Program-made: the position numbers and the translations under genes | Shown: positions 10,511 to 12,834 of the stretch, in pieces | Numbering within the stretch: position 1 is the stretch's first letter | Layout: the number at the start of each line of letters is the position of its first letter | Origin: Candidatus Daviesbacteria bacterium | GTDB lineage: Bacteria > Patescibacteriota > Microgenomatia > Daviesbacterales > UBA10151 | NCBI GenBank assembly: GCA_030648645.1 | Contig: JAUSHL010000023.1 | Location: 1 to 44,903, forward strand | Length of the DNA stretch: 44,903 nucleotides | Reading direction: 5' to 3' | Notes under the pieces: model-generated | Seen by the model: only the letters and a program-made list of their open reading frames with translations | Databases searched by the model: none | What the model was told of the DNA's origin: nothing

Positions 10511-11221
10511 ATGAATAAATCTGAAATTTTTTTAAAATATAAATTCTTTGTTTGGCCGATAATAGTAGGTATTTCTTCAATTGTTGTATTGGTACTAGTT
10601 ATTATCCCTCAACTGCTAACTTATCTTAATATTAATGAAAAAATTAATCAGGTTCAAAATCGTTCCAATACCTTAGAGACTAAGGCTGTAGCACTTGAAA
10701 ACGTTGATAATTTATTAACTCAAAAAGATTTAAAAGTGGTTTTTTCGGTACTGCCCGTAGATCAGGATGTTCCTCAGGCTATGGTTGTACTGCAGGATAT
10801 GGTTGCCAAAAGCGGATTGGAACTTAAAAGCACTTCTTTTGGCTCTTCTGGCTTGCCTCAAAAAGGTGCGGGCAATAGTAGTTTTAGATTAAATATTGCT
10901 GTTTCCGGTCAGGTAAATGTATTAAGGGATTTTTTAGTACAACTGCAAAATTTACCGAGGCTTTTTCAGGTTGATTCAATCGGTGTTCAATTTCAGAAAG
11001 ATAAAGGGGTAATTGAGGCAGAAATACCTTTGTCTGTTTTTTATAATCCAACACTTGGAGAAATGGGAACTGTAGATGATCCATTACCTCAAATTAATGA
11101 TAAAGATAAAGAACTTTTGGCTAAACTTACTCAAGTAGTAGGTCAGGGAAATAATTCCTGGGCAAGTCAAGAAGCAACTTCTGCCTCTACCCCTCTGGGT
11201 AAATCCGACCCTTTTGAATAA
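10511..11221 (+). CDS. pilO: PilO-like protein
   Basis: TM plus coiled coil, LP...DVP, FL..L..LPRL, C-terminal GKSDPF. Confidence 0.8.
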   Translation: MNKSEIFLKYKFFVWPIIVGISSIVVLVLVIIPQLLTYLNINEKINQVQNRSNTLETKAVALENVDNLLTQKDLKVVFSVLPVDQDVPQAMVVLQDMVAKSGLELKSTSFGSSGLPQKGAGNSSFRLNIAVSGQVNVLRDFLVQLQNLPRLFQVDSIGVQFQKDKGVIEAEIPLSVFYNPTLGEMGTVDDPLPQINDKDKELLAKLTQVVGQGNNSWASQEATSASTPLGKSDPFE

Positions 11222-11236
11222 TCTCCCATAAATCAT

Positions 11237-11266
11237 TTTGTTATTTGTTATTTGTTATTTGTTATT
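11237..11266. repeat. Heptamer tandem repeat (TTTGTTA)4
   Basis: Direct reading. Confidence 0.9.
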
Positions 11267-11289
11267 CAGGATGTCGAAATCTTTTATAC

Positions 11290-11321
11290 ATCACAAAATT
11301 ATGATATATCACAAAATTGTG
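11290..11321. repeat. Doublet of ATCACAAAATT(A/G)TG palindromes downstream of PaaX/Cas2-like gene
   Basis: Units at 11290 and 11308 (18-nt period); matching doublet at 12026-12058. Confidence 0.85.
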
Positions 11322-11347
11322 CGGTGTTCAAAAGTCAAATAATGTAA

Positions 11348-11983
11348 TTAAAGACCAAAATAAGTTTTATAGATTTTTTCATTTTCCAATTTTGCCACTA
11401 CTAAATATAAAACCTCTTCACTCAAGTCATAATATTGTCTTAAAAATTCAATTTGTTTATCGCATGGATAAGGAGCAAGATAAACACTTTTTTGTAGTTT
11501 TAAACACTCAATCTTTTTAAGGAGGCGTCTAAAATTTTCTGCAAAAATTCTCTTTCCTTTGGGAACGTCATAAATTATTAATCTCCATTTTCCATCCCAT
11601 TTTGGGGGATGATCAATCATAATTTCTTCCAGTTTATACCTTAAGAATTTTGTCTGCCCTTTCGAAGAAAGTTTTATAGAGTATTCTCCATTTTCTTCTA
11701 TAATTTCTACAACTTTTTGAGCATATAATCTTTTTAATGTTTGATGTAGTCTCCATTGATTAAATCGATCTAGTTTTTTTTGTTCTTTTTCTCGTTGTTT
11801 CTTTTTGTATAGATCAATGATTGGTTTAGATGCCATTGGTAAAGTAGGTATTATTAAACTTGCAGCAACAAATGTGCCAACTCCTAAAAGTAGAAGCACA
11901 TTTTTTACTGTAGGATTTTCCAAAGCTTCTCTAACCTTTTCAATATTATTTTTTCTATTACCATTTCTAGTAGGTTTTTGCAT
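11348..11983 (-). CDS. PaaX-like wHTH + Cas2-like domain protein
   Basis: wHTH (LKRL..QK.V...KLSSKG) followed by KWDGKWRLIIYDVP...FRR.LK....LQKSVY..PYPC, typical of the PaaX central/Cas2-like fold. Confidence 0.8.
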   Translation of the reverse strand: MQKPTRNGNRKNNIEKVREALENPTVKNVLLLLGVGTFVAASLIIPTLPMASKPIIDLYKKKQREKEQKKLDRFNQWRLHQTLKRLYAQKVVEIIEENGEYSIKLSSKGQTKFLRYKLEEIMIDHPPKWDGKWRLIIYDVPKGKRIFAENFRRLLKKIECLKLQKSVYLAPYPCDKQIEFLRQYYDLSEEVLYLVVAKLENEKIYKTYFGL

Positions 11984-12025
11984 TTTTTTATCTTTATTTT
12001 TTTATATCTACCTTATTTTTAATGT

Positions 12026-12058
12026 ATCACAAAATTGTGACATATCGCAAATCTGTGA
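12026..12058. repeat. Doublet of ATCACAAAATTGTGA-like palindromes upstream of PaaX/Cas2-like gene
   Basis: ATCACAAAATTGTGA (12026) and ATCGCAAATCTGTGA (12044), 18-nt period. Confidence 0.85.
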
Positions 12059-12240
12059 GGTGGTATAAATGATATGAGTATTGTAATCTACTTGTTGTGT
12101 TTGAAACTAGAATAATGCGACTAAAAGAGTAATCTTAATCTATAAACTAATTTAACTCGTCTACCAATGGCGGACTTGTTAAATATTTTGAACCCAAAAT
12201 TTTGATTAAAAATTGCAAATTAGAGTATTTTGGGTATAAA

Positions 12241-12834
12241 TTACTTTTCCAATATTTTATTTATTTCTTCTAATAATTTTTCAAATTTCAGGTATCCAGC
12301 TTTTGCGTTGAAGTGTCCTGCATTTGGTACAAAATTAAGTTTAACTCCAAGATGCTCTGATAATTGCTGTCCGTTTGTCAAACCAACATAAGGATCAGTA
12401 TCAGATTGAAAAACTACAAAATGCTGTGCTTTCTTTTTTATAGATTCCCAATCAAAGGAAAAACCGCTAAAATTGTTGTCCCGGTCATAATTTAAAATAG
12501 GACGAACTCCAATAGGTGTTCCAATAAAGAAAACTGCCTTAACTGGATATTTCAACTGTTCTAATATTCGAAGTGTAAAAATTCCACCTAAACTGTGGCC
12601 TATGAGTATAGTATTTTCGTCTATATGCTGTTCATAATCTTTCAAAACATCAAACCATTCAGCAATCTTTACTGGGACTATTGGTGGCGTTGAAAATTGT
12701 GGAACAAAGACGTTATACCCTGTTTTCTCCAACTTTTGTTTTAACCATGGAAACCAATTTTCTTCTGGATAACCTTCTGTTCCATGGAATATAAACAAAT
12801 TTTTTATTGATGTATTGGAAATTTCAGATTTCAT
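12241..12834 (-). CDS. RBBP9/YdeN-family alpha/beta hydrolase
   Basis: FIFHG....PEENWFPWL, GHSLG nucleophile elbow, SDTDPYV, AGHFN. Confidence 0.9.
   Translation of the reverse strand: MKSEISNTSIKNLFIFHGTEGYPEENWFPWLKQKLEKTGYNVFVPQFSTPPIVPVKIAEWFDVLKDYEQHIDENTILIGHSLGGIFTLRILEQLKYPVKAVFFIGTPIGVRPILNYDRDNNFSGFSFDWESIKKKAQHFVVFQSDTDPYVGLTNGQQLSEHLGVKLNFVPNAGHFNAKAGYLKFEKLLEEINKILEK

Follow-up and report, generated by a model that had tools for sequence, protein, structure and literature searches.

A small gene of the PaaX family in a Candidatus Daviesbacteria bacterium stands between two copies of one palindrome, and nearly all its relatives do likewise, each with a palindrome private to itself. 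The stretch of DNA analysed, here called the window, is the 44,903 nucleotides (nt) of contig JAUSHL010000023.1 (assembly GCA_030648645.1). The gene, here termed mini-PaaX, is an open reading frame of 211 amino acids (aa) on the reverse strand (11348..11983). Ahead of its start, on the same strand, is a putative upstream composite palindrome, operator U (12025..12060), and beyond its stop a putative downstream one, operator D (11289..11324), also on the reverse strand. The reading that we favour, with confidence somewhat better than even, is that mini-PaaX represses itself and has a second, auxiliary operator downstream, which acts by a DNA loop or by polymerase block. The architecture, the family rule, an asymmetry of promoter features between the two copies and the pattern of gain and loss are directly observed, and from these sequences we infer binding, repression and either looping or a roadblock.

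Operator U comprises two 14-mers (12027-12040 and 12045-12058) around a CATA dyad, and operator D two more (11291-11304 and 11309-11322) around TATA, with the sites within each pair 18 nt apart. An earlier sequence-only reading of this DNA had noticed four palindromes at an 18-nt period, after the stop and before the start, and a motif scan confirmed their positions: the mismatches to TCACAAAATTGTGA are 1 in each of the downstream 14-mers (11291-11304 and 11309-11322), and 0 (12027-12040) and 3 (12045-12058) in the upstream ones. That the doublets are in direct orientation, also claimed there, was borne out by a repeat search of the window, which yielded a 55-nt direct repeat (11279-11333 versus 12015-12069) with 76% identity. 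The last base of the downstream 14-mer pair is 25 nt beyond the stop codon, composite D beginning 23 nt beyond it, and the edge of operator U is 41-43 nt ahead of the ATG (43 nt for the 14-mer pair). U and D are ~736 bp apart and flank a unit of ~640 nt. Could such doublets be due to chance? When up to 3 mismatches to TCACAAAATTGTGA are allowed there is no enrichment in the window (14 matches versus 12.3 expected). With at most 1 mismatch all 3 of the window matches flank the mini-PaaX gene, and in the whole genome of 962,049 bases there are just 5 such places, 3 of them at this gene. Chance was rejected as an explanation.

The appearance of a ‘doublet of palindromes’ stands as far as the four 14-mers are concerned, but not as two separate palindromes at each end. 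Each doublet is evidently one composite palindrome of ~36 bp centred on CATA or TATA, the 14-mers being its halves. The ground for considering it to be the composite palindrome usual in the family is that in relatives at 49-52% identity (L072, L074 and L077) the palindromes are single and read CATCACA...TGA-yATA-TCA...TGTGATG, and the doublet look evidently arises since inner and outer half-sites happen to resemble each other. Among paralogues and relatives the positions of the half-sites are conserved and the arm spacers are often asymmetric, which fits a reading in double-stranded DNA better than a hairpin. In most loci U and D have diverged from each other at spacer positions, and in some loci both copies are perfect 18/18 palindromes. 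One-sided changes in the arms number 170 versus 55 compensatory ones, with 14 double changes that are non-complementary; in slid controls ~55% of double changes are complementary. Spacers consisting of A and T only make any double change complementary, which explains the compensatory excess over the slid controls, and no conclusion is drawn from it.

How general is the bracketing? A protein search gave 101 relatives, all with PF20803 and, where the source names them, mostly from Daviesbacteria, Curtissbacteria or Gottesmanbacteria; among them are proteins P0002 and P0003, which are 85% and 81% identical to mini-PaaX. Scans with the single protein gave no close ortholog in metagenome contigs and one distant match in genome contigs. 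A match is present in 66 of 96 genomes of the same taxonomic family, the copy number per genome ranging from 0 to 11. The present 0.96-Mb genome has 11 paralogues, the closest pair having 62% protein identity, so that there are no close copies of the cassette within it. Flank inspection and local alignment revealed a ~36-nt palindrome of its own on either side of each of the 11, ahead of the start and past the stop. As a common measure, identity between U and D was added, in a 36-nt window, to the palindromic pairs in each copy (maximum 72), and the pass mark was set at 44, the 95th percentile of 739 control genes, i.e., other genes of this genome (mean 38.9, 99th percentile 51.2). The mini-PaaX gene scores 54, and 9 of the 11 paralogues exceed 44. 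The two that miss, C35_28061 (43) and C39_6753 (42), have pairs found by local alignment, and one has an insertion in its downstream copy. Of 29 loci in the family's other genomes, 25 are above the mark; L039 and L040 miss it, as do L014 (a scoring artefact due to an internal stop) and L033, whose downstream flank is only 134 nt. An independent metagenome scan gave at least 585 relatives, of which 80 loci were kept and 20 then dropped for flanks <150 nt or partial matches, and 51 of the 60 scorable loci exceed 44. The high-scoring controls were AT-rich simple repeats, duplicates of the miniature inverted-repeat transposable element (MITE) or repetitive extragenic palindrome (REP) type, and a gene on contig C26 bracketed by the TCACAAAATTGTGA-type motif. 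The site-gene-site layout with private palindromes is a rule of the family. The homologues, which the sequence-only reading suggested inspecting for flanking palindromes of their own, do carry downstream copies, each with a palindrome private to it.

What, then, is the downstream copy? Here operator D falls between the mini-PaaX stop and the end of the convergent pilO, at 11221. Five of the 11 loci of this genome have a convergent next gene; of 49 distinct metagenome loci, 21 have a convergent one and 20 a co-directional one, and the remaining 8 have no next gene in the locus. In the metagenome loci the downstream copy begins a median of 13 nt past the stop (range -7 to 94). The mixed orientation of the next gene, coupled with the stop-hugging position, argues that it is not an operator of the neighbour's promoter. 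Nor does it seem to be a second promoter, as sense-strand promoter likeness favours U in 22 of 34 U/D pairs and D in 4, with 8 ties (Wilcoxon p 4.5e-4, the kin among the pairs not being independent); on the antisense strand there is no U/D difference in the same 34 pairs. The downstream copy is no typical terminator either: the downstream copies are no better as hairpins (-9.95 kcal/mol for D versus -10.96 for U), no T-tract excess follows them (4.29 T in the next 10 nt for D versus 4.09 for U), and the prediction of terminator-like sites is negative across 10900-12500. Related to this is the very improbable alternative that the palindromes act at the RNA level, as 5′ or 3′ stabilisers or a terminator in the form of transcript hairpins, rather than as DNA sites. 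The 36-mers do fold as RNA, averaging about -10 to -11 kcal/mol; against this are the features of the downstream copies just described, the asymmetry of the arm spacers, and the upstream copy being over or upstream of promoter hexamers, so that much of it would be untranscribed. Rfam has nothing relevant around the window sites or the copies on contigs C24 and C26 described below (nothing here above E 0.2), and there is no tRNA there. Six orthologs from at least 3 genera, syntenic on both flanks, all retain both copies, with the half-site columns CCA..GC.AT.GC..TGG invariant while the spacers drift. It is from this retention that the downstream site appears to be kept by selection over long times in a fixed context.

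The protein itself has three parts: a hydrophobic helix at residues 29-47 (26-44 in the model), a predicted winged-helix region at ~53-119 and a Cas2-like PaaX_M domain at 127-211. PaaX_M (PF20803) is the only Pfam domain above cut-off (residues 127-198, 57.1 bits versus a cut-off of 24, E 1.9e-15); Pfam gave no match to a winged-helix or PaaX N-terminal domain, nor to PaaX_C, the protein ending with its Cas2-like domain. An AlphaFold2 model, for which 55 relatives were in the alignment, has a mean predicted local distance difference test score of 74.6 (85-92 in the C-terminal domain), with a low-confidence helix at 26-44, then helix, helix, beta-hairpin and helix at 53-119, and a confident beta-alpha-beta-beta-alpha-beta domain at 133-209. 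The top Foldseek matches are Escherichia coli PaaX (8a39, E 8.7e-4, aligned over 135 columns) and Rv0674, followed by many Cas2 chains with template modelling scores, normalised to the Cas2 chain, of 0.42-0.66. A profile search of PDB sequences reached 8a39 only at E 0.12, and the Cas2-like domain alone gave chance-level matches only to those sequences. The sequence-only reading had described the domain as of Cas2 or PaaX-middle type, and both the Pfam match and the predicted fold bear this out. A complex prediction with two copies of residues 50-211 scored 0.01 (mark 0.42), which speaks neither for nor against a dimer. The hydrophobic helix, for which the Kyte-Doolittle 19-residue maximum is 2.23 at residues 29-47, is shared at 2.0 or above by 5 of the 11 paralogues and is clearly absent from 5, the start of the C39 paralogue being mis-set; in this subfamily it probably anchors the protein to the membrane.

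Two identities that might be assumed for such a protein were rejected. One was CRISPR Cas2: the matches to PF09827 (18.4 bits versus 23.8) and to the NCBIfam Cas2 model TIGR01573 (16.7 versus 24.5) are under their cut-offs, Cas1 (PF01867) is absent from this 95%-complete genome whereas control genomes do give matches, and there is no CRISPR-like array or array-like tandem repeat in the window. The other was a true PaaX of a paa regulon: the equivalog TIGR02277 gives 21 bits, far from its cut-off of 264.55, PaaX_C is missing, and PaaA_PaaC (PF05138) has no match in the genome. The earlier observation that paa genes, cas1 and a CRISPR array are lacking thus extends, for the genes, from the window to the genome.

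Invariant in the 55 aligned relatives are P46, G109, D130, W133, R134, D139, R152, S166, C174 and E200. D139 is within the motif WDGKWRLIIYD, whose YD is at the end of the first strand, and Y138, D139, R152 and S166, invariant or nearly so, make up a Cas2-type motif; we take Y138-D139, with R152 and S166, to correspond to the catalytic residues of Cas2. Does this mean that the protein is an enzyme? A tightly self-repressed effector, i.e., a Cas2/VapD-like nuclease or a toxin-like module of defence or addiction whose winged helix and operators keep its insulated expression low, would account for the invariance of that motif. It would also suit those several paralogues that have no site beyond their own two, the variable copy number (0-11 per genome, with a match in 66 of the 96 family genomes), and the accessory genes among which these genes sit, with toxin-antitoxin-like pairs such as a DUF433/DUF5615 pair by the C24 copy and, by eye, a HicB-like product after C35_35517. 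To our knowledge no catalytic role has been reported for PaaX_M, and the solo copies by other genes on C26 and C24 suit a regulator better, so that we regard an effector as distinctly unlikely.

Does the motif occur beside other genes? A genome scan for the TCACAAAATTGTGA doublet gave six lines, four of them at 18-nt spacing (the two here, C24:28619 and C26:3955), and there is a degenerate fifth doublet copy at ~C26:5392. The other two lines, C26:29526/29543, with 17- and 19-nt spacing, adjoin a gene resembling REP-associated tyrosine transposases (RAYT) that has a different flanking hairpin repeat. On C26 the mini-PaaX motif brackets a 402-aa gene that has no Pfam family and whose start reads, by eye, like a lipoprotein signal, and on C24 a copy is 107 nt upstream of the DUF433/DUF5615 pair. 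The same protein would probably also bind the C26 copies and the C24 copy. The sequence-only reading had set an ordinary regulon operator present at many unrelated genes as counter-evidence to its proposal; there are copies beside the C24 and C26 genes, as in a small regulon. For the sister palindromes there are 0-5 solo copies per type, some upstream of genes, in a list that rests on blastn-short with queries shorter than the full-length elements.

In the reading that we favour, mini-PaaX would be a sequence-specific DNA-binding protein with the winged helix and Cas2-like middle domain of PaaX and without the C-terminal effector domain. The match of both its domain and its fold to PaaX, a known self-repressing repressor, supports its being a regulator. 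Each ~36-bp operator, in which a central dyad is enclosed by inner and then outer (CACAA...TTGTG) half-sites, would probably be bound by a dimer or by a dimer of dimers. A weak candidate for the gene's own promoter, on the reverse strand (12001..12030), has a -35-like GTGATA (12025-12030), an 18-nt spacer and a -10-like TATAAA (12001-12006). Its -35-like hexamer falls inside operator U, and by this overlap the upstream operator would allow the protein to repress itself. The downstream operator, 23-25 nt beyond the stop, would be an auxiliary site of the same protein, and there are two options for what it might do. It may cooperate with U through a ~736-bp DNA loop, or it may be a protein roadblock that both ends the gene's own transcript and keeps convergent polymerase from the pil operon out, and so together with U insulates the gene from its neighbours. 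The insulating role is favoured because D hugs the stop whatever the orientation of the neighbour, because the contexts in which the units occur are many, including antisense between two co-directional genes, and because the cassettes are without ordinary terminators. A DNA-looping module had been proposed as an alternative in the sequence-only reading, and it is close to what is favoured here, the loop itself being something that we infer.

Several points weigh against self-repression with an auxiliary operator. The candidate promoter scores 8.5/12 by hexamer count, under the 9/12 from which the promoter scan of the window lists matches. The distances between U and D show a maximum R of 0.22 at 10.5 bp (n = 58), phasing that is not significant after the period scan. 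Paralogues C20_3058, C39_6753 and C28_13071 have, by blastn-short, no copy beyond their own two; a regulator of itself alone, as in at least 3 of the 11 paralogues, would need another purpose. Two copies of the C20_22241 type flank a divergent gene pair on C12, each in a convergent gap (C12:9846 and C12:11201). A palindrome of the C35_28061 type, 36/38 identical to its parent, is in frame within a loop of methionyl-tRNA synthetase (MetRS; C21:55996-56037, L152), where it is translated as about SGVTRNLAIAKNLGT; the loop varies in sequence and length among relatives, and such a copy is hard to explain as regulation, an operator role not being obvious. Finally, invariance of the Cas2-type motif would be unexpected for a domain that serves dimerisation purely.

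The in-frame MetRS palindrome keeps a REP-like reading alive, and with it the issue of mobility. The neighbours of the mini-PaaX gene in the genome are genes for PilO and a serine hydrolase, and between pilO and trmD here are the hydrolase gene, the mini-PaaX cassette and, with them, a MITE-like repeat. The pilO-trmD junction is empty in 24 of 29 relatives, the two stops being 0-33 nt apart. The loci with occupants in the relatives are L048, L055, L062, L057 and L070: the junction of G083 has a different bracketed mini-PaaX and a 206-aa gene, those of G072, G027 and G016 have a 222-aa RAYT-like Y1 transposase, and that of G014 has a 209-aa gene and a GIY-YIG-like open reading frame. Empty junctions and varied occupants point to the mini-PaaX gene being accessory and the convergent pilO-trmD junction an insertion hot spot. 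Fixed synteny, which would have counted against the sequence-only proposal, is accordingly not what is found. When five ortholog groups were compared, one was syntenic, one shared only an upstream tRNA gene, and three shared nothing within 1.5 kb; in these three (~71-77% identity) DNA homology runs from the upstream palindrome to the downstream one. Two congeneric genomes (genus g61) provide empty sites for the syntenic group, with the neighbours adjacent and gaps of ~15 and 89 nt, and in neither locus is there a 36-mer matching the palindrome at 22/36 or better. The site-gene-site unit is gained or lost as a whole block, the empty site keeping no copy, and this argues both against U-D recombination and against duplication of a pre-existing target palindrome.

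An excisable or invertible cassette, in which the direct palindromes would be recombination sites like those of floxed genes and integron cassettes, or a CRISPR-like duplicated target repeat, was already disfavoured on these grounds, and we consider it most improbable. It has on its side two ~36-bp direct palindromes flanking a ~640-nt unit that is present or absent as a block. Against it, empty sites keep no palindrome, there is neither a recombinase domain nor Cas1 nor an array, U and D have diverged at spacers in most loci, and the contigs of 3 sequencing runs, one of them containing this DNA, have no joint across the cassette due to excision or inversion, which is weak evidence as contigs miss rare forms. 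The single-doublet junction that the sequence-only reading expected between the neighbours was not found, the empty junctions having 0-33 nt between stops and the two g61 sites being palindrome-free, and nothing in this analysis shows the Cas2-like domain cutting or recombining its ends. Of its ‘minimal mobile unit’, gain and loss as an accessory block stands; neither a single-doublet junction nor contig joints nor relatives in phage, plasmid or viral collections were found in its support.

A selfish element akin to REP/RAYT or to insertion sequences of the IS200/IS605 type, in which the Cas2-fold protein recognises palindromic ends, possibly as hairpins, nicks or mobilises them and seeds solo copies, is unlikely, though it has points in its favour. 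IS200/IS605 insertion leaves no duplication at the empty site, and the empty sites here have neither palindrome nor duplication. The private flanking palindromes resemble those of five RAYT-like genes with their own repeats in this genome; the pilO-trmD junction is occupied by a RAYT-like gene in 3 relatives, and by a mini-PaaX in 2 genomes; and orthologs ~71-77% identical are in unrelated contexts in 3 of 5 groups, with the homology bounded by U and D. The solo copies, including the 36/38 in-frame one in the variable MetRS loop, the invariant YD/R/S motif of Cas2 type, and the perfect 18/18 palindromes in both copies at some loci also fit. Yet the genome has no close cassette copies, the closest pair being at 62% protein identity, and just 0-5 solo copies per palindrome type. 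Pfam finds no HUH/Y1, DDE, serine or tyrosine recombinase domain in mini-PaaX, one-sided arm changes exceed compensatory ones (170 versus 55), and the six syntenic orthologs attest to long-term stability. No relatives were found in phage, plasmid or viral collections, and the contigs give no alternative joints. That there is here a new minimal selfish DNA, whose Cas2-fold winged-helix protein binds and processes its own palindromic ends, moves footprint-free, insulates itself and seeds solo palindromes, we judge unlikely.

Around this cassette no displaced ends of the pilO, trmD or hydrolase genes were found. At C14:2450-3200, around paralogue C14_2724, there are two extra 3′-end fragments of the upstream 753-aa gene, whose product ends ...CKFASWTKPK, one right after the real stop and the other after the downstream palindrome of the cassette; these look like gene ends displaced by insertion through homologous recombination.

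How does this compare with what is known? PaaX, a phenylacetyl-CoA-responsive repressor of E. coli and Pseudomonas (PDB 8a39, 3l09), has a winged helix followed by a Cas2-like middle domain, as mini-PaaX appears to have. According to the review PMC9493321, the palindromic site of PaaX is TGATTC(N27)GAATCA, inverted half-sites 27 bp apart, and PaaX represses its own promoter Px. In contrast to PaaX, which has 316 aa (chain 8a39_AP1), mini-PaaX has 211 aa, no C-terminal effector domain, an N-terminal hydrophobic helix and no paa genes in its genome. It further differs in having, as a family rule, a second putative operator just past the stop, and in its number, one genome of 0.96 Mb having 11 paralogues whose sites are private to them. 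Auxiliary operators as such are familiar, and those of LacI, GalR and DeoR can be hundreds of bp off or on the downstream side of the promoter. The repressor gene of lambda CI is between the multi-part palindromic operator sets OR and OL, with looping strengthening self-regulation. However, the far operator of lambda serves an outward promoter of its own, whereas the downstream site of mini-PaaX is without promoter features and abuts the stop, and the loop of mini-PaaX would enclose the regulator gene alone. In REPtrons, RAYT genes are flanked by REPs, and IS200/IS605 elements have subterminal hairpins. Mini-PaaX is like these in its lineage-specific flanking palindromes, intergenic solo copies, one in-frame copy and a hot spot shared with RAYT. 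It is unlike REPtrons in having no HUH/Y1 domain, flanking copies that are direct and not inverted, 0-5 solo copies and arms that are not fully complementary. With CRISPR Cas2 it shares the ferredoxin-like beta-alpha-beta-beta-alpha-beta fold and the YD motif that closes the first strand; it differs in the fusion to a probable winged helix, in scoring below Cas2 cut-offs, and in having no Cas1 in the genome and no array in the window.

Literature searches on PaaX with Cas2 or winged helix, or with Patescibacteria, CPR (candidate phyla radiation), Microgenomates or Daviesbacteria, gave, among the matches listed, no description of this layout. Mini-PaaX thus appears to be a PaaX-family DNA-binding protein with an obligatory site-gene-site architecture not found described in the literature searched. 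Its host is an ultra-small groundwater bacterium, and gene regulation in the Patescibacteria of the candidate phyla radiation is almost unstudied. With at least 585 metagenome relatives, the family is large and offers many predicted regulator-site pairs that are directly testable and maybe mutually orthogonal. If looping or polymerase block is what occurs, it would be a compact way of freeing gene expression from the landing site. Were the protein instead to act on the palindromes, the Cas2 fold would underlie a mobile element of a new class; if it is selfish DNA, that fold would gain a DNA-end-handling role outside CRISPR, and mini-PaaX would be a possible relative of the ancestral state behind repeat-flanking adaptation modules.

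Some other features merit brief comment. Between the pilO stop and operator D is a perfect (TTTGTTA)x4.3 tandem repeat (11237-11266), at which assembly unitigs break. On the other side of the gene, the MITE-like repeat (12130-12245, ~105-116 nt) contains ACCCAAAAT...ATTTTGGGT and has ~50 full or partial copies in the genome; its contig depth is 2627 versus ~50 for adjoining DNA, so that it is plentiful in other community members too. After the C24 doublet a 267-nt non-coding stretch (C24:28655-28920, L009), without an Rfam family or tRNA match, shares TTCCGCAGGCT with spacers on C26. Those spacers are modular ones between the genes of an accessory-gene row (C26:3839-8245, L010), and each combines a TCCACCCC..GGGGTGGA hairpin and a TTAGCTTCAAA-like stretch with a palindrome of mini-PaaX type (of C18 type, of C35_8503 type or C28-like). 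The five RAYT-like genes (C20:7293-7946, C5:4097-4780, C3:32455-33096, C26:29619-30269 and C8:19848-20552), which surfaced as high-scoring control genes, are each flanked by their own hairpin repeats, and their products carry ...YHIYNRG...MPNHFHL....

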